This document shows, one piece after another, positions 12,701-63,882 of a stretch of DNA of 64,000 nt. The notes under the pieces are model-generated. The model was not told the origin of the DNA and did not search any database. It saw only the letters and a list, made by a program, of their open reading frames with translations. The DNA comes from a virus, in IMG/VR virus record IMGVR_UViG_3300027798_000020, positions 47,101 through 111,100 of that record; one strand, written 5' to 3'. How positions within the stretch are numbered: the first letter of the stretch is position 1; every line of letters begins with the position of its first letter. Position numbers and translations under genes: made by a program.

Positions 12701-15700
12701 TGAAGTTAATGCGGTTGAAAGAACTGCGGTAACTGTTAACGGTGTAAACATTTTAAAACTAAACTTGTCAACTGCTGGTAACAATGGTACTTCATCAGTT
12801 GGTTTAGTAACTGCACTATACAACGGTCAGTTAGTAACTATTCGTACATTACAGAATAACAAGTACTTGGGCATTGCTAACGTAAACCCAACTCGTCCAA
12901 GTACTGCGTTACAGTATACTGATAATCTAGCAGATATCTATCGTGTTATTACATATAACTTAACAGAAGGTACAGGAGAACTACTGCCGCAAAATCAAGC
13001 AGTACTGTCAACTGACACATCATTTCTTTACTTTAAGATTGTAGTTGATCCGGCTAAGATTGGCACAGTTGATTGGATTGAACCTACTAAGACTATGGGA
13101 TTCAATGTAGGAGACACTAGATTAGCTATCCTGTCTATTGCTAAACAAAATACCATTGACCAAATTAATAAAGGCACGTACATAACAGGCTGGAACGGCA
13201 GAATTCATCGCGTGGCACAGTACTATGGCATACCAGAAACTGTACTTACAGATTATAATCCTGTTGGTAGTACCGGAGTAACACTGAAAGTAACCAGTAC
13301 TACCGGCATACATGAAGGCATGGAAGTTAACGGTAACGGTTTTATTAGTAATCAAACTGTCGTTGCTGTGGTTAACTCTGTAACCTTAACTCTTAGCGGT
13401 GCTCCTGATAGCACACCTGGTGGAGGTTTATCTTTCGTCAGTTTACGACCTGCATATCTTGAGTTAGAAGAAACACCAATTTATAATATTGGTGGTACTG
13501 GTACTATTACTCCAGCATTGACATTTAATTCAATAACCGGAACTGGTTTAGAAACTAGATATATAACGTTTGATACACCTTGGCAGCTGACTCCCCAGAC
13601 TGTAGATAGTTACGTCAATGTATCTGGTCAAGGTAATAGTTTATACAACGGGCCAAAACAAGTAACTAAAATTATTTCTGAAACACTTGTTACAGTTGCT
13701 AGTACATCAAGCCTTGATGTTGGTATGATCATTACCGGCTCTACTGTTACTGGCAACGTTAACTTGACTGATATTGTTAGTTTAACACAATTTAAAGTTA
13801 GCCCAGCTATTTACTTGCCAGCAGGCACTAACATCACTGCTACTAAGGTAGCTACATTAGGCAGCGTTACTATTGTTAACGGCGGTAGTGGGTACTTAAC
13901 TCCACCTGTGATTACAATCAGTGGCGGTGGCGCAACTATTGATGCCCTAGTAACTTGTACAGTTGTTGGCGGCAGTATTGATACGGTAACTGTTGTTAAT
14001 CCGGGTTACAACTATACCAGCTTACCAAATTTATCTATTGAAGTTGCAGGAGACAACAACGCAGTATTAGTACCAGTTCTAACTGCAACATCAACTACTA
14101 ACGTAACTGCAACTGCTGGTGTAAACACATCTCAGATAACATTAGCATACAAGACAGACCCAAATACTAGTGGGACTATTTCTGCAACTACAGTAACTAC
14201 TAACTGGATCAATATTAGTACAACTACAAACTTGTATGTTGGCAATACTATTGTATTCAGCGGTACTGCGTTTGGTGGCATTACCGCAGCCACTACGTAT
14301 TACATCATTCAAGTAGGTACAGGTCAAATTAAAGTAAGTACCAGCAAAGGAGGGTCATCAATTACCCTAAGCACCGCAGTCGGTGCTATGACATTTGTTG
14401 CTAACAGCTTTAATTTTGGAACTAGTATTACTGCCACAGGATTTGGTTCACAGACTGGAACAGGTCCTTATTCAGTTACTCTAAACTTTGGATCAACAAC
14501 TGCGCCTGAGACTGGGCAGTATTACAAGGTAGAAGGAAATTCAAATCCGATATATAACGGATTCTTTAACTGTACTGCATCTACCACTACTAGCATTACA
14601 CTAACATATCCAAATAATCCAGGTGTGTATGGCTCAGGAACTACTCTTATTACTAAAGAATTGACCAAAGGTACAAACGTATCAACAGGTATTAGTAAGC
14701 CGTTTGGAAATATAGATGCTACTACAATTCGTTTAGGTTATGCGGCAGGAGCACAAGGACAAGTTACTACACGTATTAGTACTTGTCGTGCAACAGGGCA
14801 TGACTTCTTAGATATTGGTACTGGTGGTTACTCAACTACTAACTACCCATATCAAATTTATGGCAACCCTGCTATTAGCCGTAAGGGTGAAAACGAAACT
14901 TACGAAGAGGGTGTAGGTCGTGTGTTCTATGTAACCACTGACCAAAACGGTATCTTCCGTGTAGGTCGATTCTTTACAGTTGACCAAGGTACTGGTACAG
15001 TTACATTCTCAGCGTCAATTGCGTTGAGTAACTTGGACGGTATTGGTTTCAAACGTGGTGTTGTTGTAAGTGAATTCTCAACAGATGCTAGCTTTACAAA
15101 CAATGCTCCAGACGCTGTACCTGTTCAATCAGCCACACGTGGTTACATTGACAAGCGTTTAGGTTTAGATCACGGTGGTGCTCCAATTGCCGCAAGTAAT
15201 TTAGTTGGTCCAGGATACTTGGCATTGAACGGTGCGCTGGCAATGAAGGGCAACGTTAATGCTAATAACTACAAAGTTATTAATTTAGCTCCACCAACAG
15301 ATATAAATGATGCTACTCCAAAAGCATATGTAGATGCACAGGTTAGACTATACGATCAATTATCTGAATTATTAGATGTTGATGTTGGCACACCTATTGC
15401 TGGGGACTTGGCAGTCTTTGTAGGCGGTAGCAAAATTATGGTCAGTGCCACAACTGCCGGCGATTTAAGTGCTACCTTTACTAACAGTACTCCGACTACT
15501 TTAGCTGTACCTATTATTAGTTTATTAGCAGTTGATGTGACAACAATTACTGTAGTTAATGCTGCCGCATTCGGAACAGGGCCCGGCTATGTTAAAGTTA
15601 ACAACGAAGTATTTTACTATAGCTCAACAAACTACGGAGCAAACAGACTAGACGGTGTACAACGAATATCAACTACTACAGATACAAAGTTTGGTATTAA

Positions 15701-17195
15701 CACTGGAAACGCATCAGCAACACATATTGTTGGTAGTCCAGTTGTTGACCTAACTAACGCACAGATTAACTACCAAATTAATCCGGGTGTTATTGTCAAT
15801 GCTGACGTTAACGCGGCAGCTGGCATTGTACAAAGTAAATTATCAATGACGCTGGCTACAACTTCTGCCAGCGCACCAACAGGTACTGCCGCACAGAAAC
15901 AAGCTGCCAGTGGCGTAGCAAGTTTTGATAGTGCTAACTTTACTATCACAGACGGTTGGGTTGGAATCAAAGCAGGTGGTGTTGCTCTAGCAGAAATTAC
16001 TAATCTCGGTAATGGTTCTATACTTGGAAACTTTTCTGGCACTGCCAGTGCTCCAAGAGAAGAAACTGCACAAACTGTTTTAGATGCTGGATTTAATTTA
16101 AAATTTACCACTAACGTAGGCGTTGTAACATACGGCGGAACATCTGGTTCTGCTTCAATTACTACTATATCTACAGATGGTACTGCCAGTACAATTGCCA
16201 AATACGGCTCATCTGGTGAGTTTGATACTAAACAATTAAAAGTTGACGGATTTAAAGCCCTTGACGTTTCAGCAAATGCTTTAGAATTCTTTACTCCGGC
16301 AGGTTTTAAATTCCAAAGTGCAATTGGTTCTACAGGTAGTAATACCGTTACTACTGCATTAGGAACTTGGGACTTCAGTGGTGGCACATTAAAAGCCACT
16401 GCGTTTACTACAGGTGCTGCCGCAACTGCTGGTAGTATTACTGGACAGTGGGCAGTACAGTCAAGTAGCTTGGTTGACTTCTCTCTAGGCACATTAAAAT
16501 CAACTACATTAACTACAGGTGCTGCCGCAACTGCTGGTACTGTAACTGGTGCTTGGAGTTTAGGTGCTTCTAGTTCGTTTGATGCTACAGCAGGTACATT
16601 AAGAAGTTACAGTCTATCAACAGGGACTGTTAGTCAAGCTGGTACTATTACTGGTGCTTGGAGTTTAGGTTCTACTAGTAGTTTAACTACCGGCACAGGA
16701 TACATTGATGCTAGAAATGGAACGTTATATACTGCTTCTCTAAATGCAGGAAATGCAACAGCAACAGGTACTATTACAGGTAACTGGAGTACCAGCGGTA
16801 ATCTAGCAGCCACATACGGTGCTGACTTAGCTGAGTGGTATAGAGCTGATACAGAATACGAGGTAGGAACTGTCTTAATATTTGGTGGCTCTGCTGAAGT
16901 AACTGTATCTAATACCATTGCTGACACTAGATTAGCAGGTATTGTTTCTACAAATCCAGCATACATTATGAATGATGGCTTAGAAGGCACACGAGCATTA
17001 ATTGCACTTGCAGGGCGTGTTCCATGTAAAGTGCTAGGTAGAGTTAAAAAAGGTGATATGCTAACAACATCTGCAACTCCAGGCGTGGCAGTTAAAGCAT
17101 TAGATCCTAAGCTAGGTACTATCATTGGCAAGGCACTTGAGGATAAAGACTCTGGTGACATTGCTGTAATTGAAGTGGCCGTAGGAAAGGTGTAA
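6747..17195 (+). CDS. Giant virion structural protein (baseplate/tail appendage), 3482 aa
   Basis: N-terminal IDIGVQGNDGTGDSIRESFRKVNENF resembles the T4 gp9/gp10 N-terminus; six helical CxRD repeats; Thr/Gly-rich beta regions; C-terminal ADLAE...GRVPCKV autocleaving chaperone-like domain. Confidence 0.8.
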   Translation: MARQEIDIGVQGNDGTGDSIRESFRKVNENFNEIYAIFGAGGAISLTNLSDAQSLRFIDGEGYVADYGQNRLIISKTDGSGLAAKTLIAGEGISIDVTDPDKVTITNALSTTASDPAPKLGGPLNSNQFPIGKVPDPSSDLVASFNAVHGPRGVTTTLDELAISKGYADRNYVKSQGGLIGDALRVRDEPLVPQIEEDDYDPTLTSNYVANETLPRKNVVFRGGDSMTGPLILNDHPGAIAGIGSPNGADDLQAATKYYVDNSTYSSAINLFVTTKGDDTQALTPRGKEGRFWNYAYKSVGAACLAAEGLITISQTEPGPYRQRIAYTQGPDQTFSLVTNVTLSGGNSGDTGYVNAFDLLRVNKEFIQYETIAYINNKYVNTFTFDKAKCSRDVGLMIDAVTLDLVLGTTYNTVLAATRYYDESSSKVLSDQLIQTVDAIRFVRDSILNFSYSNTILSAYIGDVIDALCFDVVYQSNFRSIRMAEKFPSAETGIEFEQLIGVLTDLKESILGLSQVVAVPIAVDIINDNINLMIALIQGDEAPTPTLPSVLGVTKGSNSDSRELLLNNIDFIQSEIIAFLTAEYPGLQYSKETCKRDVRLMIEAVIYDLLYGNNTTGVNVASVYAGQRYWVGTQRQIAAPELVPTLAAVEYINTLAQSIVQNQTPAVVYQTTTKQYRNQTFSRVSGVGADAVATRTRITELITIIKGLVEVNVPPAIVEVDVSNTSGTSSALRGVRTAILGTGGNANRTALRNAAVAYVNENYPVINNALALQTINSNFQIIIDLLEIGISSRPEVTYISPESLGGGVTSARELMLENISFIQEETIGWINTNFPDLIYNQNTCKRDLKYIIEAVAYDITYGGNSASVFAGELYWINAVSQVVGQITQTIEGINYAQQIIGQVISNVNILQSYQSPPFQVPQFIDLDLEDGIDATVEINSLFTAIKDLIASESLTIDSQYPALDTGDYSEAYLAIRQTIQNEKSVIQDETVKYLDVTYKGGFNYDEAICFRDVGLIIEAMAIDLVTDGTYQTINAGTSYYRNTSAKSIAIGTQYKETLDGIEYAKTLAVQVLNRTTASRYQSLYTQTFNISGTLPSSLYGMIGDRGAPSQGAITDLTYNMNTLIGIIVNGFGSAPTPSFGTGLWTVRHSNGGNSYVDQGNPNNNDILPAKVLVGVSSDAFANIVTYAPGLSDTSDTITCRLTKPAYYQVGEQIEFGEKVKDLQIVIFVEAGIYYEDYPIKLPTNCSIKGDEFRRTIIRPKDRISQSPWRKVLFYRDAIIDAMQLGPIDTSVDYKTNTTINVSATNGTIVVTLGSGQVPSSWIGRLLVVDSTVPGRPEGKAVIDSVSGNFMNCSVVYPFEVAGIKQPVDWHLYATTNYGRHYLVNPLDVNSSPKNNKEIDIFLCNDATRINNLTMQGHGGFAMVLDPEGQILTKSPYGQVCSSFSQSINRKRFAGGQYIDGFAGRLRGAISAVANNGGQITITGAVNSGLDVRAPQPPCAFFISGTRYQINDIVSYNSATSSVTVTMDTATPWNGGFNFNEAKCSRDVGLIIDAVTYDLVTGSNYQSINAGRSYLRSYSSLVRGNVQLAKTIQALEEVTSQVVASIPGNTTAIAILQDRMQLVIDILRDGASAIPEPVYPALSWQTTPYTNARDILLANKEFIGEEVVSWIGVNFNVAQIPNYSVNTCRRDVKYIVEALVHDIIYGGNSMSQDAGLAYFRGTTSYIPGEEAVTIAAYNYMKGILNSIVQNNLITKSAGNDLTQNVSLPVSNSTVGTAVIALVDVLNDILSGGTTSTPYQFPSNFTGVSTVLTTARATVLSVKTTIATDIIVFLREGLGTLINIEMGGNKSMLANDFAMINDLGYGIVANNGGVTEQVSTFSYYCHTHYWASNGGQIRSVAGSNSHGTYGLRATGYDVTELPDEVNLADNMIQVARVYKEGLFVNEMTPTIAKQSLAVYITDYDYGPQNISELEVDHSLAGFGVTRYEVNAVERTAVTVNGVNILKLNLSTAGNNGTSSVGLVTALYNGQLVTIRTLQNNKYLGIANVNPTRPSTALQYTDNLADIYRVITYNLTEGTGELLPQNQAVLSTDTSFLYFKIVVDPAKIGTVDWIEPTKTMGFNVGDTRLAILSIAKQNTIDQINKGTYITGWNGRIHRVAQYYGIPETVLTDYNPVGSTGVTLKVTSTTGIHEGMEVNGNGFISNQTVVAVVNSVTLTLSGAPDSTPGGGLSFVSLRPAYLELEETPIYNIGGTGTITPALTFNSITGTGLETRYITFDTPWQLTPQTVDSYVNVSGQGNSLYNGPKQVTKIISETLVTVASTSSLDVGMIITGSTVTGNVNLTDIVSLTQFKVSPAIYLPAGTNITATKVATLGSVTIVNGGSGYLTPPVITISGGGATIDALVTCTVVGGSIDTVTVVNPGYNYTSLPNLSIEVAGDNNAVLVPVLTATSTTNVTATAGVNTSQITLAYKTDPNTSGTISATTVTTNWINISTTTNLYVGNTIVFSGTAFGGITAATTYYIIQVGTGQIKVSTSKGGSSITLSTAVGAMTFVANSFNFGTSITATGFGSQTGTGPYSVTLNFGSTTAPETGQYYKVEGNSNPIYNGFFNCTASTTTSITLTYPNNPGVYGSGTTLITKELTKGTNVSTGISKPFGNIDATTIRLGYAAGAQGQVTTRISTCRATGHDFLDIGTGGYSTTNYPYQIYGNPAISRKGENETYEEGVGRVFYVTTDQNGIFRVGRFFTVDQGTGTVTFSASIALSNLDGIGFKRGVVVSEFSTDASFTNNAPDAVPVQSATRGYIDKRLGLDHGGAPIAASNLVGPGYLALNGALAMKGNVNANNYKVINLAPPTDINDATPKAYVDAQVRLYDQLSELLDVDVGTPIAGDLAVFVGGSKIMVSATTAGDLSATFTNSTPTTLAVPIISLLAVDVTTITVVNAAAFGTGPGYVKVNNEVFYYSSTNYGANRLDGVQRISTTTDTKFGINTGNASATHIVGSPVVDLTNAQINYQINPGVIVNADVNAAAGIVQSKLSMTLATTSASAPTGTAAQKQAASGVASFDSANFTITDGWVGIKAGGVALAEITNLGNGSILGNFSGTASAPREETAQTVLDAGFNLKFTTNVGVVTYGGTSGSASITTISTDGTASTIAKYGSSGEFDTKQLKVDGFKALDVSANALEFFTPAGFKFQSAIGSTGSNTVTTALGTWDFSGGTLKATAFTTGAAATAGSITGQWAVQSSSLVDFSLGTLKSTTLTTGAAATAGTVTGAWSLGASSSFDATAGTLRSYSLSTGTVSQAGTITGAWSLGSTSSLTTGTGYIDARNGTLYTASLNAGNATATGTITGNWSTSGNLAATYGADLAEWYRADTEYEVGTVLIFGGSAEVTVSNTIADTRLAGIVSTNPAYIMNDGLEGTRALIALAGRVPCKVLGRVKKGDMLTTSATPGVAVKALDPKLGTIIGKALEDKDSGDIAVIEVAVGKV
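16369..16790 (+). repeat. Intragenic tandem ~105-bp (35-aa) repeats
   Basis: GTL....TTGAAATAG.(I/V)TG.W x4; identical 28-mer at 16407 and 16512; identical 21-mer at 16545 and 16650. Confidence 0.8.
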
Positions 17196-33149: not shown

Positions 33150-33412
33150 AATACATTATTTTAGGTCTTGCTATAGTTCTAACTGCCTGTTCTACACCTG
33201 TTCCAGTTAGCCAACGATTCCCCGATGTTCCTAAAGCATTGGTAGAACGATGCGAAAGTCTTAGAAAAGTAGAAGGTGACAAGGTTGCTATCACAGAGAT
33301 GTTAAAAGTAGTTGTACAAAACTACGGCATGTACTACGAATGTGCGGCAAAAGTTGACGGGTGGAATGACTGGTATCAGGAACAAAAACGCATTTACGAG
33401 AGTGTAAAATGA
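33146..33412 (+). CDS. Outer-membrane spanin lipoprotein (Rz1-like)
   Basis: Lipobox LTAC, Pro-rich segment, two further Cys. Confidence 0.75.
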   Translation: MKYIILGLAIVLTACSTPVPVSQRFPDVPKALVERCESLRKVEGDKVAITEMLKVVVQNYGMYYECAAKVDGWNDWYQEQKRIYESVK

Positions 33413-33636
33413 AAATTGCCGTTGTTATTATAGCCGTAATGCTATCGGGTTGTGCTGTTATGTCTAATCCAGAGGTTGAAAAATCTGTATCTAGAGATAA
33501 AACAATGGAGCAGATGGCAAAAGCGGCATTAATCAACGATATGTTGCACAGTCCAGATGCTCATGTAAGGGCAAAGGGAGCCTCTATTGCAGAAAAGTTT
33601 TTAACGGAACCTAAACGAAACTTATTTGGATTTTAA
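33409..33636 (+). CDS. Small lipoprotein
   Basis: Signal peptide with lipobox LSGC. Confidence 0.65.
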   Translation: MKIAVVIIAVMLSGCAVMSNPEVEKSVSRDKTMEQMAKAALINDMLHSPDAHVRAKGASIAEKFLTEPKRNLFGF

Positions 33637-49568: not shown

Positions 49569-52235
49569 TTGAGTTATGTAGACGCATGGTTCAACCGTGA
49601 TGAAGATGTCATCAAGATTGTTGAACGAAATAAGAAAGGTGAGCGGGAGTACAAAGACTATCCTGTTAAACACACTTTCTACTATAAAGACCCTAAGGGC
49701 AAACATCAATCAATTTACGGAGATCCACTTAGCAGGATTGTCTGTAAGAACACTAAAGAACTACGCAAAGAACAAGCTATCAATTCAGGTAAGCAATTAT
49801 TTGAAGCTGATATCAATCCTATCTTTGTATGTTTAAGTGAACACTATCTAAATCAAGATGCTCCAAAACTAAACGTGGCGTTTTGGGATATTGAGGTGGA
49901 CTTTGATCCAGAACGTGGCTATGCATCACCAGATGATGCGTTTATGCCAATTACTGCCATCGCTGTCCACCTACAATGGTTAGATACCCTTGTATGTTTA
50001 GCTGTGCCTCCTAAGACTATGACAATGGAGCAGGCCAAAGAAGCCGTTGCTGAATTTCCTAATACATATCTATTTGCAAAAGAATCAGAGATGTTAGACA
50101 TGTTCTTGGATTTAATTCAAGATGCTGACATTCTAAGCGGTTGGAACAGTGAAGGCTTTGATATGCCCTATACTGTAAATCGTATTACTAAAGCATTAAG
50201 CAAAGAAGATACACGTAGACTGTGTTTGTTTAACCAATTTCCAAAAAGACGAGAATACGAAAAGTTTGGACGAGATTCTGTAACCTTTGACCTGTTAGGG
50301 CGGGTACACTTAGATAGTCTTGAATTGTATCGCAAGTACACATATGAAGAGAGACATAGTTATCGATTGGATGCTATTGCAGAATATGAACTTGATGAGC
50401 GTAAGACTCCGTATGAGGGGTCGTTAGATCAACTTTATAATCATGACTTTAAAAAGTTTATTGAATATAACAGACAAGATACGGCACTGCTAGACAAACT
50501 AGATAAAAAGTTAAAGTTTATTGACCTTGCCAACACACTGGCACACGAATGTACTGTGTTACTACAGACTACAATGGGTGCTGTGGCTGTAACCGAACAG
50601 GCTATCATTAACGAAGCACACCGCAGAGGTTTCCAAGTTCCTAACAGAACTAAAATGGACGAACGAGAAGACAGTCAAGCGGCTGGTGCGTATGTTGCCT
50701 ATCCTAAAGAAGGCATTCACGATTGGATTGGATCACTAGACATTAACAGTCTGTACCCAAGTGCCATTCGTGCGCTTAACATGGGACCGGAAACTATTAT
50801 TGGCCAGTTACGCCCAACTATGACAGATGAATACATTCAGGCGCACCTTGCCAAAGGCAAATCGTTTGCGGCTGCGTGGGAAGGTATGTTTGGCTCATTA
50901 GAGTACACTGCGGTCATGAATGAAGAAATTGGAACAGAGATTGCCATTGATTGGCAAGATGGTTCTAGTGACAATCTAAGTGCAGCCGAAGTATATAAAT
51001 TAATTTTCGACAGTCATCAACCTTGGGTATTAAGTGCCAATGGAACTATCTTTACCTACGAGAAAGAAGGTATTATTCCTGGTTTGTTAAAACGTTGGTA
51101 TGCTGAACGTAAAGAGATGCAGGCCAAACTAAAAGAATGTATTGCGGCAGGAAACAAAGTAGAAGAAGAATACTGGGACAAGCGACAACTAGTTAAGAAG
51201 ATTAACTTGAATAGTTTGTACGGTGCTATTTTGAATCCAGGATGCAGATTCTTTGATAACAGAATTGGCCAATCAACAACATTAACCGGACGTGCTATTG
51301 CCAAACATATGGCTAGTAAGGTAAACGAAATTGTAACAGGCGAATTTAATCATATAGGCAAAGCTATTATCTACGGTGATACTGATTCGTGTTACTTTAG
51401 TGCATATAAGACATTAGAAAATGAAATTAATGCAGGGCAATTGCCATGGACCAAAGAAAGTGTAGTTCAACTATACGACCAAATCGGTGAAGAAGTTAAC
51501 TCAACATTCCCACAGTTTATGTTAGATGCGTTCCATTGCCCGAAAGCACGTGGTGAAGTTATTAAGGCAGGGCGAGAAATTGTTGCCAGCAAAGGCCTGT
51601 TTATTACTAAGAAACGTTATGCAGTCCTTTACTATGATAAAGAAGGAAAACGTACAGATGTAGATGGCAAGCCAGGCAAGATCAAAGCTATGGGCCTTGA
51701 CCTAAAGCGTAGTGATACTCCAGAATTTATTCAAAACTTTTTAAGTGATGTTCTTGAGAAGGTCTTAACTGGCGCTACTGAAGAAGATGTACTTAATCAC
51801 ATTAGTGAATTTAGATTAAAATTCAAAAGCAGACCTGGTTGGGAAAAAGGCAGTCCAAAACGTGCTAACAAGATTACTGAGTATCAAGAAAAAGAACGCA
51901 AAGCTGGAAAAGCAAACATGCCAGGACACGTTCGTGCCAGTATTAATTGGAATACGTTAAAAAGAATGATGGGAGACAAATACTCAATGGGTATTACTGA
52001 TGGGGCTAAGGTTATTGTATGTAAACTTAAACAAAATCCTATTGGCTTTACATCTGTTGCGTATCCAGTTGACGAGCTGAGGTTGCCGCAATGGTTTAAA
52101 GATTTGCCATTTGATCATGCAGAAATGGAACAGACTATTATAGATAATAAGTTGTCCAACTTGATCGGAGTTCTTCATTGGGATGTTACTAGCACTGAAG
52201 AAAAAAATACCTTTAACAGTTTATTCGAGTTTTAA
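49569..52235 (+). CDS. Family B DNA polymerase (T4 gp43-like)
   Basis: Exo DIEV, GWNSEGFD, YN..D; pol DINSLYPS, KKINLNSLYG, YGDTDS, KKRY; TTG start with SD. Confidence 0.95.
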   Translation: MSYVDAWFNRDEDVIKIVERNKKGEREYKDYPVKHTFYYKDPKGKHQSIYGDPLSRIVCKNTKELRKEQAINSGKQLFEADINPIFVCLSEHYLNQDAPKLNVAFWDIEVDFDPERGYASPDDAFMPITAIAVHLQWLDTLVCLAVPPKTMTMEQAKEAVAEFPNTYLFAKESEMLDMFLDLIQDADILSGWNSEGFDMPYTVNRITKALSKEDTRRLCLFNQFPKRREYEKFGRDSVTFDLLGRVHLDSLELYRKYTYEERHSYRLDAIAEYELDERKTPYEGSLDQLYNHDFKKFIEYNRQDTALLDKLDKKLKFIDLANTLAHECTVLLQTTMGAVAVTEQAIINEAHRRGFQVPNRTKMDEREDSQAAGAYVAYPKEGIHDWIGSLDINSLYPSAIRALNMGPETIIGQLRPTMTDEYIQAHLAKGKSFAAAWEGMFGSLEYTAVMNEEIGTEIAIDWQDGSSDNLSAAEVYKLIFDSHQPWVLSANGTIFTYEKEGIIPGLLKRWYAERKEMQAKLKECIAAGNKVEEEYWDKRQLVKKINLNSLYGAILNPGCRFFDNRIGQSTTLTGRAIAKHMASKVNEIVTGEFNHIGKAIIYGDTDSCYFSAYKTLENEINAGQLPWTKESVVQLYDQIGEEVNSTFPQFMLDAFHCPKARGEVIKAGREIVASKGLFITKKRYAVLYYDKEGKRTDVDGKPGKIKAMGLDLKRSDTPEFIQNFLSDVLEKVLTGATEEDVLNHISEFRLKFKSRPGWEKGSPKRANKITEYQEKERKAGKANMPGHVRASINWNTLKRMMGDKYSMGITDGAKVIVCKLKQNPIGFTSVAYPVDELRLPQWFKDLPFDHAEMEQTIIDNKLSNLIGVLHWDVTSTEEKNTFNSLFEF

Positions 52236-52236
52236 T

Positions 52237-53010
52237 ATGAAAATAATTATTGCAGGTTACGGATTTGTTGGCAAGGCGGTCACTAATGCTATTAAAACAA
52301 AACATGAAATAGTAATAGTGGATCCAGTGTGCAGTGAAAATACAATTAAAGATCATCACGATGCAGATGGTATTATTGTTTGCGTATCTACACCTAATAC
52401 AGATGGCGGGTTTTGTGACCCATCAAATATTATTAATGTACTGGATCAAGTACCTGTGTTTATGCCAATTCTAATAAAAAGCACAGTAAGTCCGGGCGTA
52501 GTAGATGTTATAACAGAAATGTTTACTGACCATAGTATAGTGTATAGTCCAGAATTTTTACGTGCTCGTAGTGCCAATATTGATTTTTTAAATCAAAAAT
52601 ACGTTATCCTCGGTGGGGAAGATCCTGAATGTTTTTGGCAGGAACTATTTTTAGGCACACTGCCAAATTGTAAAATAGCGTTCAATTGTACCGCTAAAGA
52701 ATCAATGTTAATAAAATATTCTGTGAATAGTTTTTTAGCACTGAAGACCAGCTTCTTTAATCAGATATATGATATCTGCCAAAAGGAAGATTTAAATTTT
52801 GATGCTGTTAGACACCTGATTAGTCAGGATCAACGGATAGGTAGTGATCACACTATGGTGCCTGGACCAGATGGAATGCGAGGATGGGGAGGGCATTGTT
52901 TCCCTAAAGATACAGATGCATTTACGTATTGGGCAGACCAAATTGGGGAATCGGCTACACTTGTTAAAACGGCAATAGAATATAACAAAAAAGTAAGAAA
53001 AACCTCTTGA
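52237..53010 (+). CDS. UDP-glucose/GDP-mannose dehydrogenase family protein (short form)
   Basis: GYGFVG, CVSTP, IKSTV.PG, SPEFL, K...NSFLA, GWGGHCFPKD. Confidence 0.85.
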   Translation: MKIIIAGYGFVGKAVTNAIKTKHEIVIVDPVCSENTIKDHHDADGIIVCVSTPNTDGGFCDPSNIINVLDQVPVFMPILIKSTVSPGVVDVITEMFTDHSIVYSPEFLRARSANIDFLNQKYVILGGEDPECFWQELFLGTLPNCKIAFNCTAKESMLIKYSVNSFLALKTSFFNQIYDICQKEDLNFDAVRHLISQDQRIGSDHTMVPGPDGMRGWGGHCFPKDTDAFTYWADQIGESATLVKTAIEYNKKVRKTS

Positions 53011-53035
53011 CTTTTACCACAAACCTAAATATAAT
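53007..53035 (+). promoter_or_regulatory. Overlapping sigma70 and late promoters
   Basis: TTGACT-17 bp-TATAAT with TAAATA at 53026. Confidence 0.7.
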
Positions 53036-53055
53036 AGATAAACATGGAGAATCAT

Positions 53056-53787
53056 ATGAAAGATATTTTACAAGACCTAGTTGCACACACGCATAGTCTA
53101 GGATTTTTACCGCTAGTTAAAATTAGCGGAAGTGACTCGGATACAGTAATCGAGTCAATGGCAGAGGATCGGTCTGTTGTAGTTAACGCTAAAACCCACA
53201 CCGCAGTTCCTGCATTTGAAGGTACATTTGGTATGCCTAACTTGGATAAACTCAGTATTCATTTAAGATGTCCTGAATACAAAGAGGGTGCAGAAATTGA
53301 TGTTGTCAGACAGAATAGAAACGGTGACGATATTCCTACAGGTATCCACTTTAAAAACAAAGAAGGGGACTTTGTTAATGACTATAGATTTATGAACTCA
53401 GAAATCATTAACGAAAAACTTAAGACTGTAAAGTTTAAAGGTGCCAAGTGGGATATTGAATTTCAACCTAACGTGTCTAGTATTCAAAGATTGAAGTTCC
53501 AGGCACAAGCACACAGTGAAGAGCCAGTATTCCAAGTAACTACTAAAGGTGATGACCTAGTGTTTAGCTTTGGTGATGCCAGCACACACGCAGGTAGCTT
53601 TACCTTCCAAGCAGGGGTTACAGGCAAGCTAAAACAAACATGGTCATGGCCAGTCCAACAGGTTATGAGTATTCTTAATCTAGACGGTGACAAGACTATG
53701 CGTATTGCAGATGTTGGTGCATTGCAAATTACAGTCGACAGCGGCATGGCTGAATACAACTATACACTACCAGCTCAAAGCAAATAA
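53056..53787 (+). CDS. Probable sliding clamp (gp45/PCNA-like)
   Basis: About 243 aa, alternating alpha/beta pattern, FGMPNL..L and terminal Y.Y.LPA; near polymerase, clamp loader in window; weak motif evidence. Confidence 0.5.
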   Translation: MKDILQDLVAHTHSLGFLPLVKISGSDSDTVIESMAEDRSVVVNAKTHTAVPAFEGTFGMPNLDKLSIHLRCPEYKEGAEIDVVRQNRNGDDIPTGIHFKNKEGDFVNDYRFMNSEIINEKLKTVKFKGAKWDIEFQPNVSSIQRLKFQAQAHSEEPVFQVTTKGDDLVFSFGDASTHAGSFTFQAGVTGKLKQTWSWPVQQVMSILNLDGDKTMRIADVGALQITVDSGMAEYNYTLPAQSK

Positions 53788-55487
53788 TGAATAAAAACTT
53801 AACAGCTACTCAACACGACTATGCTGTGTTTTTGCCAGCAACTTCAGGATTCTATGCTACATTTATCGGCAAGCAACGGCACGGAAATTATGTAGATCCT
53901 GCACGTATTCCTAGCGTGTGGGGTGCTGGTATGGAAAGTCTAAACTATTTAGAACCTGAAAAGGGAGAATTCTACTATAAGTGGTGTCTCTATTCAGCAG
54001 GTCACGCTAACTTAGATCTTACTAAGAAAGACGATAGTGAAGATATGTTCCGTAATAGAGACCGTAGTACAAGTTGGGTACTAGGCGACTCAGGCGGATT
54101 CCAGATTGGTAAAGGTGTTTGGGAAGGTGAGTGGCGAGATCCAACTGGGCCAGAAGTAAAGGCTATGATGGCTGAAGCTGTTGCCAAAGGTATTGAACTA
54201 GTACCAGTCATTGACCCCACTGGTAATCATGCTATGGATAAGAAAGGCAACCTTAAATACACTAAGGTTGATCATGTAAAGCAGTATCAAGCAAGACTAG
54301 ATGCGGCTCATAAAAAGCGTACACAGGTATTAACCTGGATGGATACACTTATGGATTACGGCATGGTGCTTGATATTCCTGCGTGGGTTGAACGTAGTCC
54401 TGTTGGGCGTAAAGCTACGGGGATCGAATCATATGATCAAGCTGTAGAAGCAACCAAATACAACAACGAGTATTGGATCAAACATCGCACTGGTGCTTGT
54501 AAGTTCTTAAATGTTCTGCAAGGTGAAACACACAAACAAGCCGATGATTGGTATAGTAAGATGAAAGACTTTTGCGATCCTAAAGTCTACGGCGACAAGG
54601 CGTTCAACGGCTGGGCTATGGGTGGGCAGAATATGTGTGACATCCATTTGGTATTAAAAAGATTAGTAGCATTGAAGTTTGACGGACTCCTTGAAAAGGG
54701 TCATCAAGACTGGATGCACTTCCTGGGCACCTCTAAGTTAGAGTGGGCAACTTTATTAACTGATATTCAACGAGCAGTGAGAAAATACCATAATGAAAAC
54801 TTTACCATATCTTTTGACTGCGCCTCACCGTTTCTGGCAACAGCAAACGGACAAATCTACATCCAAACTGAACTCGAAGATAGAACAAAATGGGTCTATC
54901 GCATGGTGCCATCTGCTGATGACAAAAAGTACGCAACAGACACAAGACTGTTCAAAGACGCAGTCATCCAAGACAGAGTTTTTGCAAACTTTGAATCAAG
55001 TCCCCTTATCGATCAGTGCCAAATAAAAGATGTTTGTATATACAATCCGGGCGACCTAAATAAGATTGGTAAGGAAGGCAGGACGTCATGGGATTCGTTT
55101 AGCTATGCTATTCAAATGGGTCATAACGTATATGCTCACTTGAACGCTGTTCAACGTGCTAATCAAGCATACGATAACGGCAAGGTTCCGGCTATGCTAG
55201 TACAAGAAAAGTTCGATCGTGTCTATTTTAGAGATGTAGTTGATGCCATTTTCTCTACACCTAATCGTGCAGATGCAGAATTGATCATTGAGTCGTTTGA
55301 TAAATTTTGGCAGTCTATTATTGGCACACGTGGTGCTACTGGTAAGAAAACAGTTAACGCGGCAACACAATTTGCCAATCTGTTTGACTTTGAAGAAGAA
55401 ACCACTGTACAATTAGAGCACTCCGAAGAATTTAGTGAAGAAGAAGAACAATTATTAGACCAGCTAGAATTACAGGTAAAAGAATGA
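53787..55487 (+). CDS. dpdA: TGT-superfamily DNA 7-deazaguanine transglycosylase (DpdA-like)
   Basis: TGT signature DSGGFQ, plus MVLDIP, NVLQG, GWAMGG, HFLG, SFDCAS; queD and folE in window. Confidence 0.75.
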   Translation: MNKNLTATQHDYAVFLPATSGFYATFIGKQRHGNYVDPARIPSVWGAGMESLNYLEPEKGEFYYKWCLYSAGHANLDLTKKDDSEDMFRNRDRSTSWVLGDSGGFQIGKGVWEGEWRDPTGPEVKAMMAEAVAKGIELVPVIDPTGNHAMDKKGNLKYTKVDHVKQYQARLDAAHKKRTQVLTWMDTLMDYGMVLDIPAWVERSPVGRKATGIESYDQAVEATKYNNEYWIKHRTGACKFLNVLQGETHKQADDWYSKMKDFCDPKVYGDKAFNGWAMGGQNMCDIHLVLKRLVALKFDGLLEKGHQDWMHFLGTSKLEWATLLTDIQRAVRKYHNENFTISFDCASPFLATANGQIYIQTELEDRTKWVYRMVPSADDKKYATDTRLFKDAVIQDRVFANFESSPLIDQCQIKDVCIYNPGDLNKIGKEGRTSWDSFSYAIQMGHNVYAHLNAVQRANQAYDNGKVPAMLVQEKFDRVYFRDVVDAIFSTPNRADAELIIESFDKFWQSIIGTRGATGKKTVNAATQFANLFDFEEETTVQLEHSEEFSEEEEQLLDQLELQVKE

Positions 55488-55744
55488 CACTCCCCGACGA
55501 AAGATATCGTGCAGTAAAAATGGCTCGCCAGTTTTTGCAAGAACTAATGGATCCGCAAAAGACTCCTAAGGTTCCTGCAATTATACGCAGTCAAGCTAGA
55601 GGTGTATTACGCCACTATCCCAGTGATTGGGATATGATGCAGGTCTGTGAAGCTAGTCCACATATATTTCAAACACAAATGGAAGATGTTACTAGATTAT
55701 TTAGGCGGTACGAGCAAGCAAAGGACAAAAAAGATGAAGCGTAA
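55484..55744 (+). CDS. Small phage protein
   Basis: MTLPDERYRAV...RHYP motif; coupled. Confidence 0.7.
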   Translation: MTLPDERYRAVKMARQFLQELMDPQKTPKVPAIIRSQARGVLRHYPSDWDMMQVCEASPHIFQTQMEDVTRLFRRYEQAKDKKDEA

Positions 55745-56252
55745 TTACAATGATGGAGTTACTACGGGAGTAAACTTTTTTGTTGGCACTGAAATTGAAC
55801 ATACTCCTGCGTTTGGAAAATTAAGTTTGTTTGTTGTAGGAGTACACCCTTGCAATGCTATAGAAGAATTCTTTAAAGATAAAGAATGTAAGCATATTTT
55901 CTTTGGTGCTAATCATAGTTTTAATCCACGGACCTATGAAGAACACAAAGCATGGGAAGAAATGATCTTTTATTTCCTTAAAAAAGGTGTTCTATGCTCC
56001 TTAGATATTCCGTTTAATCAAATTGAAGAATTTCACGAAAGCGGTTATTGTGAGTATGATAACTTTATTCCGCAAATACGTGTGCCAATTCCATATATTA
56101 AATTATGGAACTATAATACAATGCTTAAAATTGATGACAAGGATTTTAAAGCAACAAACCCAGGTGTGTGGTCCCACAGTCTGCACTCACTTATGGATCG
56201 TAAAAACTTCACAGACTGGTCACAATATAACAATGACGAGATTGTACAATGA
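55734..56252 (+). CDS. Hypothetical protein in deazaguanine locus
   Basis: Start at ATG 55734 overlapping upstream ORF; FFVGTEIEHTPAFG..SLFVVG, HIFFGAN. Confidence 0.65.
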   Translation: MKRNYNDGVTTGVNFFVGTEIEHTPAFGKLSLFVVGVHPCNAIEEFFKDKECKHIFFGANHSFNPRTYEEHKAWEEMIFYFLKKGVLCSLDIPFNQIEEFHESGYCEYDNFIPQIRVPIPYIKLWNYNTMLKIDDKDFKATNPGVWSHSLHSLMDRKNFTDWSQYNNDEIVQ

Positions 56253-56671
56253 TAGTTGGTAAAATAGAAAATTTAAATCCTATGATTATTAAACAAGATA
56301 TCCGCCCTAACAAAATGATTTGGGTTACCTTTCAGAAAGAAGGTATGCACAAATATCCAGCCGCACTTACAGATCCAGCACTTGCTACAGGTGATGAGTA
56401 CGATGTAAGTTTTCTAGGATATCCGCATCGTCACATCTTCCACTTTAAAGTTTGGATTTCCGTAGAACATTCAGACCGGGCGATTGAATTTATTCAATTT
56501 AAACGCTGGTTAGAAAATCTGTATAGTCAAGGAACACTCCAGTTAGACTATAAATCCTGTGAGATGATGGCAGAAGATTTGTATGAACAGATTGCCGCAA
56601 AACACCCAGGACGAGAAGTTTGGATCGAAGTGTCAGAAGACGGCGAAAATGGTGCTCTAATTAAGTTCTAA
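56249..56671 (+). CDS. dpdL: QueD-like T-fold protein, probable CDG decarboxylase DpdL
   Basis: LGYPHRHIF fits the LxxxHRHxF motif I recall for DpdL; SCEMMA and VSEDGENG T-fold features; a separate canonical QueD exists. Confidence 0.6.
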   Translation: MIVGKIENLNPMIIKQDIRPNKMIWVTFQKEGMHKYPAALTDPALATGDEYDVSFLGYPHRHIFHFKVWISVEHSDRAIEFIQFKRWLENLYSQGTLQLDYKSCEMMAEDLYEQIAAKHPGREVWIEVSEDGENGALIKF

Positions 56672-60834: not shown

Positions 60835-61081
60835 AGACAAAAAACTCAAAGTCGAATTTGCGCCAGGATGTTTTGATCATTTTGATGGCACTCAAGAAGA
60901 GCTTGATCAAATGATTAAAGACATTATGGACATGTTTGAGAACAAAAGTAAAGAAGAGCTCGAAGCTATGTCGACTCAAATTACTGCTGAAGATCTTGAC
61001 ACTCTCGATGAAGATGTGCAACAACAAATTGTTCGATCTTTGTCAGAAGATAATAGCACTACCAAAAGGAACATTCAATGA
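60827..61081 (+). CDS. Small acidic protein
   Basis: KVEFAPGCFD.FDGTQEELD. Confidence 0.65.
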   Translation: MTEDKKLKVEFAPGCFDHFDGTQEELDQMIKDIMDMFENKSKEELEAMSTQITAEDLDTLDEDVQQQIVRSLSEDNSTTKRNIQ

Positions 61082-61575
61082 ACAAGCGTTTAATAAAATT
61101 TAAAGAATTTAAATTGCTTGTTTTAAACATGTGTTCTACTATTCAACGTACTGGTTGGAAACCTGACTACATTGTAGGTATTAGTCGTGGTGGGTTATTG
61201 CCTGCTGTAATGATTAGTCAATATTTTAACATCCCTATGAAGCCGCTACAGGTTAGTCTTCGAGATAACATTGAAACTGTTAGCGATCTAGGAATGGCTG
61301 AAGATGCATATAATAATAAAAACATTCTCATTGTTGACGATATTAATGACCAAGGAACTACTTTAAACTGGATTATGAAAGACTGGCCAAGCGGTTGCTT
61401 TCCCGACGATCCTAAATGGGAAGGTGTCTGGGGTAATAATGTTAGGTTTGCTGTAGTCGTTGATAATCTTAGTAGTAAGTGCAATGTCGGAATGAATTAC
61501 TGGGGCATGGAAGTTAATAAAGCTGAGAAAGATGTTTGGATTGAATTTCCATACGAGGAATGGTGGGTTAAATGA
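61078..61575 (+). CDS. Type I phosphoribosyltransferase (xanthine/guanine PRT-like)
   Basis: IVGISRGGLLPA; PRPP loop ILIVDDINDQGTTL; WIEFPYE. Confidence 0.85.
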   Translation: MNKRLIKFKEFKLLVLNMCSTIQRTGWKPDYIVGISRGGLLPAVMISQYFNIPMKPLQVSLRDNIETVSDLGMAEDAYNNKNILIVDDINDQGTTLNWIMKDWPSGCFPDDPKWEGVWGNNVRFAVVVDNLSSKCNVGMNYWGMEVNKAEKDVWIEFPYEEWWVK

Positions 61576-61733
61576 CTAAAGATGAAATCTTACAAAGAAT
61601 ATCGCAAGTAAATGCAGACCTAGAAAAAGTAAAAGACATGCCTACTAACGCAGATCGTCATAGCGAATCGTTAAGAATGTATAGAGAATACTTACTAGAA
61701 CAACTTGCTGAGATTAAAGATGACCAACCTTGA
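61572..61733 (+). CDS. Small coiled-coil protein (not in ORF track)
   Basis: 53 aa MTKDEILQRISQVNADL...YREYLLEQL, overlapping both neighbours. Confidence 0.55.
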   Translation: MTKDEILQRISQVNADLEKVKDMPTNADRHSESLRMYREYLLEQLAEIKDDQP

Positions 61734-62094
61734 AAGGGCCTTAGATGAAAATCGAGCACCGTGGACTGAAATTGAATTCCGATCAAAAGACTTTTGGGTG
61801 TTTAGAGACGCATATCCAGTTACCCCCGGGCATTTGCTATTTGTGCCTACCGAAGAGCAAAGTGTTAATCTCTGGGAGTGCTTCAAAGCCGCATATAAAT
61901 TCGGGTTTGAAGGCGTTGAACTTGGACGGTGGGAAGCGTTCAACATCGGACAAAATGTTGGCGAGGCTGCTGGTCAAACAGTAATGTACCCACATGTACA
62001 TATGATTCCGCGACGCAAAGGAGATATGGATGACCCAAGAGGCGGTGTTAGACACGTTATCCCAGAAAAGGGTAATTACCGTAAAGAAGTTTAG
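61720..62094 (+). CDS. HIT family nucleotide hydrolase
   Basis: DAYPVTPGHLLFVP, NIGQNVGEAAGQTV, PHVHMIPR (first His of the triad replaced). Confidence 0.85.
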   Translation: MTNLERALDENRAPWTEIEFRSKDFWVFRDAYPVTPGHLLFVPTEEQSVNLWECFKAAYKFGFEGVELGRWEAFNIGQNVGEAAGQTVMYPHVHMIPRRKGDMDDPRGGVRHVIPEKGNYRKEV

Positions 62095-62287
62095 TTATTG
62101 TGTTCGAGTAGATTGGCACAATCAAGGAACATCGTGGTGGAATGAAACATGTGCCATGGTATTGGAAGTGTTTGGTTTACCCGGTGATAGGTTTGTCTAT
62201 CACCCATTTGAAGACTTTATGGAGTTTCATTTTAAAAATGAAAAAGACGAGCAGTTATGCCGCATACTATTAAGTGAACGACTATGA
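62030..62287 (+). CDS. Hypothetical protein
   Basis: WNETCA...EVFGLPGDRF...M.F.F; start uncertain. Confidence 0.55.
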   Translation: MTQEAVLDTLSQKRVITVKKFSYCVRVDWHNQGTSWWNETCAMVLEVFGLPGDRFVYHPFEDFMEFHFKNEKDEQLCRILLSERL

Positions 62288-62850
62288 CAGTGGTATTTAA
62301 TAACGGCTTTGAAACTTTTGAAGAATACGATTTTAGTTCGGTTATAACTTCTGACGATCACAATAGTGCAAAGTCACAAATTAGAGAATTTATTGATCAA
62401 GGTAGATATTTTAAAAATTCACCAAAGTATCAAACAGAAGTTAATTTGTTTGGAATCCAAGATCCTACTTGGTTAAAATTTAGAATGAGTTTTATCTTTA
62501 GTTGTTTTATGTATCTTGGAAAAGAAGTTCCAATTAAACAACTAATGGCTTGGAGTTTTATGACTTCAAACACTATTCAAGAAGATCGGGAAAGGCTCTG
62601 GCATACTCATCAATACGGTGAGGAGCGCACACTAAGTGGTGTGTACTATTTGCACATTCCTGATGATGTTGCAGACAAAACAGAATGTGGTACAGAATTT
62701 GCCTATAATGGCGTAGAAAATCTTGAAAGATTTAAATCTGTACCAAAAGATTTTACTTGGATTGTTTACCCTGGTAAAGTGTATCATAGGCCCATGATAC
62801 CACAATCAACTCAAGATCGATTTGTAATTGCAGCCGATCTTATTTTTTAA
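62284..62850 (+). CDS. 2OG-Fe(II) oxygenase-like (DSBH) protein
   Basis: WHTH, LSGVYYL, GTEF, YPG..YH, R.VIA motifs. Confidence 0.65.
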   Translation: MTVVFNNGFETFEEYDFSSVITSDDHNSAKSQIREFIDQGRYFKNSPKYQTEVNLFGIQDPTWLKFRMSFIFSCFMYLGKEVPIKQLMAWSFMTSNTIQEDRERLWHTHQYGEERTLSGVYYLHIPDDVADKTECGTEFAYNGVENLERFKSVPKDFTWIVYPGKVYHRPMIPQSTQDRFVIAADLIF

Positions 62851-63162: not shown

Positions 63163-63882
63163 ATGTCAGAACTACATTATAAAGAAGAAGACGGACGACC
63201 TCTTAGCCAGGTTATCCGCAACAGGCTCAAACAAAATAACAAACGTTTCTGGGCTGGCGACAATATCAGCGAATACATTAGCGATGTTGAAAAAGATTCT
63301 TTAATCAACGAAGCAACAACAGCATTTGAACAAGTATTAGACACCCTGTTGATTGATCGAGAAACTGATCCTAACAGCAAAGGTACAGCAAGACGTCTTG
63401 CTAAAATGTACTTTAATGAAATAATGGCAGGAAGATATGAACCAGCACCAGACGCAACCGCGTTTCCAAATGACTCGACAGACCGTTATCAAGGTATGTT
63501 GGTTGTTCGTAGTGAGCTTCGCAGTATGTGTAGCCATCATCACCAACCCGTTGCTGGCGTTGCTTATATTGGTATTATTGCGGCTGAGAAACTCATCGGA
63601 CTTAGCAAGTATACAAGGATCGCTCAGTGGTGTGCCCGTAGAGGTACTCTCCAGGAGGAACTTTGTAATGACATTGCTAGGGAAATCCAAAAAGCAACCA
63701 ACTCAGAAAACGTAGCAGTATACATTCAAGCCACACACGGCTGTTGTGAAAACCGTGGTATTATGGCACACTCTAGTCTAACACAGACTACAGTACTTAA
63801 AGGCGCATTTAAAGATGATCAGGGTACAAAGAAAGAATTCTTTGACAATATCAAAATGCAACAAGAGTTTGCCCCACGTTAA
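63163..63882 (+). CDS. folE: GTP cyclohydrolase I
   Basis: SMCSHHHQP, IGLSKYTRI, LQEEL, HGCCENRG, EFF. Confidence 0.93.
   Translation: MSELHYKEEDGRPLSQVIRNRLKQNNKRFWAGDNISEYISDVEKDSLINEATTAFEQVLDTLLIDRETDPNSKGTARRLAKMYFNEIMAGRYEPAPDATAFPNDSTDRYQGMLVVRSELRSMCSHHHQPVAGVAYIGIIAAEKLIGLSKYTRIAQWCARRGTLQEELCNDIAREIQKATNSENVAVYIQATHGCCENRGIMAHSSLTQTTVLKGAFKDDQGTKKEFFDNIKMQQEFAPR

Follow-up and report, generated by a model that had tools for sequence, protein, structure and literature searches.

A polymerase-like tail peptide in a divergent DpdA-like transglycosylase from a jumbo-phage relative: possible tethering of DNA base exchange to the sliding clamp

The 64,000-nucleotide stretch analysed here (positions 47,101 to 111,100 of the IMG/VR virus record IMGVR_UViG_3300027798_000020; the whole stretch is called the window below) makes up the end of a viral contig of 111 kb that is estimated to hold ~31% of a genome and is related to jumbo phages (PA5oct, Vibrio 2.275.O, Phosso and the Atu_ph07/121Q type). 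It encodes a putative DpdA-like DNA-guanine transglycosylase of 566 amino acids (aa), and the tail of this protein carries a peptide, FANLFDF, that resembles FNSLFEF, the last residues of the DNA polymerase of the same virus. We consider clamp-tethered, replication-coupled base exchange to be the best reading of this arrangement, and a reasonably probable one. The folds of the transglycosylase and of a sliding clamp encoded next to it, an invariant aspartate triad, the gene context, and the disordered setting, conservation and co-variation of the peptide were established directly; the peptide would bind the clamp by analogy with phages T4 and RB69, and the tether would in turn affect modification density and selectivity for phage DNA. 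Clamp docking by a polymerase-like peptide is known, and what is new is the client, a DNA base-exchange enzyme. That the transglycosylase rides the clamp had been proposed in an earlier note made from the DNA sequence, and the present analysis supports this interpretation at the computational level, none of the refuting conditions given in that note that computation could address having been borne out.

The peptide in the two tails

49569-52235, + strand: family-B DNA polymerase of the T4/RB69 gp43 type, 888 aa (Pfam DNA_pol_B and exonuclease domain; phrog_262, E 8e-201)
52212-52232, + strand: polymerase C-terminal peptide FNSLFEF, presumed clamp-interaction peptide (read directly from the sequence)
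53056-53787, + strand: predicted sliding clamp protomer of the PCNA/gp45-type two-domain fold, 243 aa (AlphaFold2 (AF2) model, Foldseek, VIA)
53787-55487, + strand: divergent DpdA-like transglycosylase with a predicted tRNA-guanine transglycosylase (TGT) fold, 566 aa, its start overlapping the clamp stop in TAATG (AF2, Foldseek, VIA)
55320-55436, + strand: low-confidence linker, approximately residues 512-550 of the transglycosylase, holding FANLFDF (predicted local distance difference test (pLDDT) 48-51 per 10-residue block over 511-550)
55371-55391, + strand: FANLFDF, polymerase-like peptide, residues 529-535 (read directly)
55437-55484, + strand: acidic C-terminal helix, residues 551-565 (helix, pLDDT ~82)

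The polymerase, whose top PDB sequence match is RB69 gp43 (E 1e-58, residues 24-834), reads N-T-F-N-S-L-F-E-F-stop at its C-terminus, so that FNSLFEF forms its final seven residues. A role of this peptide in clamp interaction would be expected from T4, where gp43 residues 892-SLDFLF-897 occupy a hydrophobic pocket of the clamp gp45 (PMC12746103); the tails of gp43, gp55 and gp33 are similarly hydrophobic and acidic, sit on variable flexible linkers, can be exchanged for one another and function also when internal (PMC2988020). The earlier note had placed FNSLFEF at 52212-52232 and FANLFDF at 55371-55391, the latter between a catalytic body and an acidic tail, and both placements proved exact. 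In the AF2 model FANLFDF falls in a linker with pLDDT of about 50, dropping below 50 in the segments 514-520 and 536-548; residues 525-532 are predicted to form a short helix, and FANLFDF is not packed on the body. In PA5oct the polymerase gene (L001:608-5834) is broken into two coding sequences by a Hef-like homing endonuclease gene.

On a single contig such a match is weak, the pattern F..[LM]F[DEG] occurring 6 times in the 242 open reading frames (ORFs) of the 111-kb contig, and it becomes significant because the peptide is conserved across related loci. When related IMG/VR loci were compared, the motif was found at the end of 158/158 complete polymerase tails and was kept in 146/146 complete tails of the homologues of the 566-aa protein, of which 136 fit the regular expression and 10 have Y for the first F; the conservation in orthologues that the earlier note had asked about is thereby observed. 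The sequence and length of the linker are not conserved and cannot be aligned among homologues, and a [FY]-x-x-[LF]-F-[DE] peptide is present in all complete tails despite these non-homologous flanks. Close relatives alternate between two tails, one with an internal motif and an acidic amphipathic helix, the other with a different linker and the motif as the last residues; the acidic helix is present in many lineages and missing where the motif is terminal. Judged from these tails, FANLFDF behaves as a mobile short linear motif. Apart from the polymerase and the homologues of the 566-aa protein, a polymerase-type end is seen in only 15 of 4253 ORFs.

For the distant family, 92 full-length representatives clustered at 50% identity, and lying at 30-57% identity, were considered. 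F..[LMF]F occurs in the last 75 residues of 22 of these 92 as against 5 of 475 body windows (Fisher p 2e-14), and of shuffled tails 3.3 on average and 9 at most carried the motif. Under a looser definition of the motif, about 45% of the distant tails carry it, and as far as such tail comparisons go the motif is widespread in the distant family and not universal.

The form of the peptide also changes in step with the tail of the cognate polymerase. In one clade, at ~37% identity, polymerase and transglycosylase homologue alike have LFSF; in Vibrio 2.275.O the polymerase ends DLFDW and the transglycosylase homologue DLFGW, and in PA5oct the corresponding tails are DSLFGW and NSLFDV. At four loci, which are close relatives of one another, FF replaces LF in both proteins. 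The T4-like phages ACP17, Moby, X1 and BUCT-ZZ01, whose DpdA2 is barely related to the 566-aa protein, share an SL[DE]xLF form between polymerase and DpdA2; the ACP17 pair of tails is DDLFE and DELFE, the enzyme ending in the polymerase-type peptide. The jumbo-phage lineages have a common form, [TN]-F-x-x-L-F-[DE], and the two peptide forms go with two lineages of clamp: the jumbo phages have PCNA-like clamps, the other phages T4-like ones. By this comparison, the peptide goes in many lineages with the polymerase tail of the same phage. Among the DpdA3 phages with complete G replacement only phiST was compared; its DpdA3 is without the peptide, and the adjoining ORF appears DnaE-like by eye.

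Folds, active site and gene context

It was only fold prediction that resolved the identity of the 566-aa protein and of the clamp. The AF2 model of the 566-aa protein has a pLDDT of 91.7, and all of the top 50 Foldseek matches in the PDB are tRNA-guanine transglycosylases (E ~1e-6). Its VIA matches are archaeosine and bacterial TGT, with 1iq8 (Z 19.1, root-mean-square deviation (rmsd) 4.8 A, 297 residues aligned) and 2ash (Z 19.0, rmsd 4.4 A, 303 residues aligned). In a BFVD structural search the named matches are phage DpdAs, among them DpdA2 of Vibrio phage nt-1 (E 1e-9, template modelling (TM) score 0.43-0.50) and, weakly, phiST DpdA3. Profile comparison by hhalign of the 566-aa family gave a 96% probability with ACP17 gp123 (E 3e-9, 177 columns), a BLAST relative of nt-1 DpdA2 (PMC6884629), and 83% with phiST DpdA3; towards the DpdA2 subfamily the 566-aa protein stands as a distant relative. 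It has no BLAST match to nt-1 DpdA2 or ACP17 gp123 even at E 10, and no direct BLAST link to phiST DpdA3 or to Campylobacter and Flavobacterium phages. The single-protein queries P0284 and P0298 gave no match in IMG/VR.

In an alignment of 72 diverse family members D101, S102, G104, D196, H311 and D344 are invariant. D101 lies within GDSGGFQ with F at +4, as Asp95 and Phe99 do in Salmonella DpdA, and the conserved segments of the family align in hhalign with DSGG, D-x-P and S-x-D of ACP17 gp123. The TGT/DpdA active site is made up of an acid/base Asp in the DSGGF loop, a base-recognising Asp and a nucleophile Asp, and the order D101, D196, H311, D344 matches acid/base Asp, base-binding Asp, His and nucleophile Asp (PMC10164549); this equivalence is by order and motif, as distinct from a residue-level structural alignment.

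On these models the protein is most likely a very divergent DpdA-type DNA-guanine transglycosylase, structurally nearest to the DpdA2 group, and it most likely exchanges guanine for a 7-deazaguanine base in DNA; the label DpdA is an assignment from fold and gene context. Its family, with more than 7,500 clusters in metagenomes, stands as a DpdA family not recognised before, and its environmental members number in the thousands. With the described viral families DpdA1 to DpdA4 (PMC6884629, PMC10516641), closest among them DpdA2 of nt-1 and of Acidovorax phage ACP17, it has in common the TGT TIM barrel, the invariant Asp residues and a position among FolE, QueD, QueE and DpdL genes, whereas it differs in being larger, in an insertion of ~60 residues after the DSGGFQ loop, in lacking the zinc site and in its polymerase-like peptide tail.

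The 243-aa protein encoded immediately upstream had been taken by the earlier note for a sliding clamp, starting at 53056, and both points are upheld. The alignment for its AF2 model comprised 55 sequences of 38-83% identity, mainly from IMG/VR loci, and the model has a pLDDT of 93.8 and a predicted TM score (pTM) of 0.90. PCNA makes up all of the top 50 Foldseek matches (E ~1e-10, TM 0.65-0.70 over the full length), and in VIA 225 of the 243 residues align with the PCNA fold at Z 18.6 and rmsd 3.1 A. On this model the protein at 53056-53787 is a PCNA-type sliding clamp protomer; sequence searches of Pfam, PHROGs, NCBIfam and PDB gave it no match. Translation starts at 53056 (MKDIL...) and not at the first ATG at 53044, and the overlap of the clamp stop with the transglycosylase ATG, TAATG, is seen at 53785-53789, as had been noted before. 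The PA5oct homologue of the clamp bears the annotation 'structural protein', which stems from mass spectrometry of virions.

The gp43-type polymerase lies two genes upstream of the clamp, and a loader is encoded in the same genome:

28902-29816, + strand: clamp loader subunit (phrog_168 'clamp loader of DNA polymerase', E 1e-81; match at G000:C1:76002-76904 in contig coordinates)

Gene neighbourhoods of the distant family representatives were taken from the related IMG/VR loci. There the clamp gene is the usual upstream neighbour of the gene for the transglycosylase homologue, often overlapping it; the distance from the clamp stop to the homologue's start is at most 100 nt in 60 of 164 loci and at most 5 nt in 41 of 164. 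In PA5oct and Vibrio 2.275.O the homologue has the clamp gene on one side and, on the other, either QueE or QueF-like, YhhQ, QueC and FolE genes. Two genes of 7-deazaguanine synthesis also occur downstream in the window:

56249-56671, + strand: DpdL-like QueD relative, 140 aa, predicted 7-carboxy-7-deazaguanine (CDG) decarboxylase (LxxxHRHxF replaces CxxxHGH)
63163-63882, + strand: GTP cyclohydrolase I (FolE), first step of 7-deazaguanine synthesis (Pfam GTP_cyclohydroI, E 4e-40)

LxxxHRHxF is the signature of DpdL, a predicted CDG decarboxylase (PMC10516641). DpdL-like homologues are found in PA5oct, Phosso, ACP17 and phiST, and tblastn of the protein at 56249-56671 against DpdL genes gave 55% with ACP17 (1e-34), 35% with phiST (2e-11) and 61% with PA5oct. 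Because a DpdL-like gene is present, the inserted base is probably 7-deazaguanine itself. Upstream of FolE, at 61078-62850, there are a phosphoribosyltransferase, a HIT-family hydrolase and a weak 2OG-Fe(II) oxygenase-like ORF; the phosphoribosyltransferase could salvage the guanine freed by base exchange, or could signal a nucleotide-level route.

Proposed clamp tethering and its rivals

In the mechanism we propose, the folded transglycosylase body would be followed by a disordered linker bearing the hydrophobic-acidic peptide of polymerase type, and this peptide would dock on the PCNA-like clamp of the phage, encoded immediately upstream in an overlapping gene. The phage clamp loader would put clamps on primer ends, where they would stay on the freshly copied duplex and hold the transglycosylase on new phage DNA, raising its local concentration and letting it scan along the DNA; the outcome would be dense modification limited to replicating phage DNA. 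The clamp is the likely partner because the polymerase is gp43-like, the T4 gp43 tail binds gp45 and the gene upstream is usually that of the clamp. Since the transglycosylase gene overlaps a PCNA-like clamp gene and the peptide is common to enzyme and polymerase, DNA modification is probably tied to replication.

One close parallel is the set of T4/RB69 gp45 clients, gp43, gp55 and gp33, in which a short hydrophobic-acidic peptide likewise ends a flexible, poorly conserved linker (PMC2988020, PMC12746103), and one peptide, functional also internally, is common to the polymerase and non-polymerase proteins of the same phage. The client here differs in being a putative DNA base-exchange enzyme instead of a polymerase or transcription factor, with its binding predicted; the clamp was found by fold search (PCNA) and by no sequence search, and the jumbo-phage peptide is [TN]-F-x-x-L-F-[DE] where that of T4 is S-L-D-F-L-F. 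The nearest precedent is the T4 alpha-glucosyltransferase (alpha-GT), which also binds gp45 (Sommer et al. 2004, as cited and confirmed by PMC13216743) and is, like the enzyme proposed here, a phage DNA-hypermodifying enzyme contacting its own clamp, its modification being proposed to accompany replication. It differs in fold and in chemistry, a sugar being added to hydroxymethylcytosine in place of base exchange, and a polymerase-like terminal peptide is not reported for it.

Eukaryotic DNA-modifying enzymes such as DNMT1 and UNG2 are tethered to PCNA through PCNA-interacting protein (PIP) boxes; these are base-flipping enzymes that act on newly replicated DNA and use a disordered clamp-binding peptide, with the motif grammar Qxx[LIM]xx[FY][FY] and a biology of maintenance and repair. 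The 566-aa enzyme is unrelated to them, has another motif grammar and would serve anti-restriction hypermodification. The viral DpdA families are treated in the literature consulted as post-replicative enzymes with no mention of a replisome link, and insertion of 7-deazaguanine is described as post-replicative (PMC10516641). The earlier note knew of no description of clamp riding for DpdA, and full-text searches of the literature likewise found no paper tying DpdA or deazaguanine to a clamp.

Several observations weigh against this proposal. Neither Pfam, PHROG and NCBIfam profiles nor a PDB phmmer search gave a TGT or DpdA match with the 566-aa protein; a Pfam scan of all 72 family members and a PDB search with the 72-sequence family profile found no TGT either. 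The structural zinc site CxCx2C...H, conserved in TGT and bacterial DpdA (PMC10164549), is absent, there being no CxCxxC and no invariant or near-invariant Cys in the 72-sequence alignment and a single Cys at 50% consensus. The earlier designation as DpdA-like is borne out by the TGT fold, the Asp triad and the FolE and DpdL neighbours, whereas a sequence profile match and the zinc site are missing from it. About half of the distant representatives (30-45% identity) are without a clear motif, nt-1 DpdA2 is without the peptide, that of pf16 is degenerate and that of Phosso weak, so that the tether is not universal. Docking on the clamp leaves the acidic helix after the motif unexplained, and in T4 the contact between alpha-GT and gp45 is not the main determinant of the modification share (PMC13216743). 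The link between motif and modification level comes from single phages. As such single cases, nt-1, which has no peptide tail and only ~0.1% of its G modified (PMC6884629), and PA5oct, whose DNA resists several restriction enzymes and is suspected of modified G, with QueE and a QueD-like gene named and no transglycosylase (PMC12191111), fit clamp tethering.

The main rival to the clamp is another shared replisome partner, such as the single-stranded DNA-binding protein, the helicase-primase, the clamp loader or the polymerase body, on which the peptide would dock to bring the enzyme to the fork by a route other than the clamp. This would suit Phosso, where the transglycosylase gene stands beside primase and helicase genes and 175 kb from the clamp gene, and the acidic tail after the motif, which recalls the acidic contact tails of other replisome proteins (PMC12746103, in its T7 discussion). 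We nevertheless regard it as unlikely: the polymerase is gp43-like, a terminal peptide of this kind binds the clamp in T4 and RB69 (PMC12746103, PMC2988020), the clamp gene is the usual and often overlapping upstream neighbour, and the peptide forms follow the division between PCNA-like and T4-like clamps.

It is quite unlikely, in our view, that the TGT-fold enzyme acts on another substrate, be it tRNA or a free nucleotide or base, with 7-deazaguanine entering DNA in another way, for example as a nucleotide via the polymerase, and with the tail serving some other purpose at the replisome. The missing zinc site and profile match would be in keeping with this, the phosphoribosyltransferase and HIT hydrolase near FolE could act on bases or nucleotides, and the dpdA and dpdL gene pairs of ACP17 and phiST gave no modified DNA in E. 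coli, the ACP17 pair yielding no dDG (PMC10516641). However, a DpdA-family protein, held to do the inserting, is encoded by all phages in which 7-deazaguanines are known (PMC10516641); the aspartates of the triad do not vary, the nearest viral structures are DpdA2 and other phage DpdAs, and a tail aimed at a DNA-bound clamp would suit a DNA substrate.

Action of the peptide within its own protein, as an autoinhibitor packing with the acidic helix on the DNA-binding face or in oligomerisation, would make its likeness to the polymerase convergent. The short helix predicted at 525-532 and the acidic helix at 551-565 could serve such a role, but in the model the peptide is of low confidence and not packed on the body, it persists as the last residues where the acidic tail is lost, and its tracking of the polymerase tail lineage by lineage is left without explanation, which makes this idea highly improbable. 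Chance likeness of two short hydrophobic peptides retains a negligible probability, for although the loose pattern occurs six times on a single contig and an exported lipoprotein also ends NLFGF, such chance is already contradicted by the conservation data (146/146 and 158/158 tails, p 2e-14, 15/4253 other ORFs) and by recurrence in unrelated DpdA2-bearing T4-like phages.

Neighbouring genes, further candidates and wider meaning

On the + strand the genes run in the order polymerase, short UDP-glucose-dehydrogenase-like gene, clamp, 566-aa protein, BPSL0761-family ORF, 201-aa ORF and 140-aa QueD relative. Those still to be described are:

52237-53010, + strand: short gene resembling UDP-glucose/GDP-mannose dehydrogenase, located after the polymerase gene and ahead of the clamp gene (Pfam UDPG_MGDP_dh, N-terminal and central domains; phrog_9148)
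55484-55744, + strand: small BPSL0761-family protein, its start overlapping the transglycosylase stop (NCBIfam, E 9e-18)
55647-56252, + strand: 201-aa ORF directly downstream of the transglycosylase (C-terminal half matches ACP17 gp122)

The dehydrogenase-like gene is not part of the proposed mechanism. The C-terminal half of the ORF at 55647-56252 resembles ACP17 gp122 (BLASTP E 3e-10), whose gene sits directly upstream of the ACP17 DpdA2 gene, and by this resemblance the ORF may be a conserved partner of DpdA-type enzymes. Elsewhere in the window a single ORF of 3482 aa occupies 6747-17195.

Tails of the polymerase type were also seen in other proteins. In Synechococcus phage BUCT-ZZ01 a 447-aa protein encoded upstream of DpdA2 (L177:1165-2508), with a match to glycosyltransferase group 1 too weak for the Pfam cut-off (E 3e-5), has SLEDFF-type residues at its end, resembling those of the polymerase and DpdA2 of that phage, and it may be a second clamp-docked DNA-modifying enzyme. 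Small HNH endonucleases encoded downstream of the transglycosylase gene end NFNNLFELV and NFNDFFELV (L023:7601-8008 and L017:9621-10046), and may be homing nucleases that use the clamp. Proteins of 171-183 aa ending in FNLLFE- or FDNLFE-type residues (L072:12430-12942, L165:15244-15802 and L143:14551-15099) are further candidate clients; the two that were scanned, from L072 and L143, had no Pfam match, and the L165 protein is near-identical to that of L072. Within the window, a 75-aa ORF at 33409-33636 with a conserved NLFGF end was considered as a third client and rejected, as it has a lipoprotein signal peptide with Cys and is thus exported.

As a tentative extension, worth entertaining rather than to be expected, clamp docking might be the cofactor still missing for a large class of phage DpdAs, a loaded clamp being needed on duplex DNA as bacterial DpdA needs the DpdB ATPase. 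If this were true, the class would be the DpdAs of clamp-encoding myoviruses and jumbo phages, and it would account for guanine being replaced almost completely in some phages, for modification being confined to phage DNA and for the failed reconstitution of the ACP17 pathway in E. coli; the same clamp 'toolbelt' would also carry neighbouring glycosyltransferases and homing nucleases. A clamp tether by itself would suggest a reason for that heterologous failure (PMC10516641), the tail of the ACP17 enzyme ending in a polymerase-type peptide, and co-expressed clamp and clamp loader may be needed to obtain DNA modified in this way, whether in vitro or in E. coli.

For the PA5oct group, the restriction-resistant DNA (PMC12191111) would gain its likely modifying enzyme, a member of the family of the 566-aa protein. 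Hypermodification with 7-deazaguanine shields phage DNA from restriction and CRISPR nucleases, and a clamp tether would bear both on how some phages reach very high replacement and on how the enzyme spares host DNA. It would provide a testable mechanism: clamps loaded on new phage DNA would receive the enzyme, and modification would thereby be coupled to synthesis in space and time.

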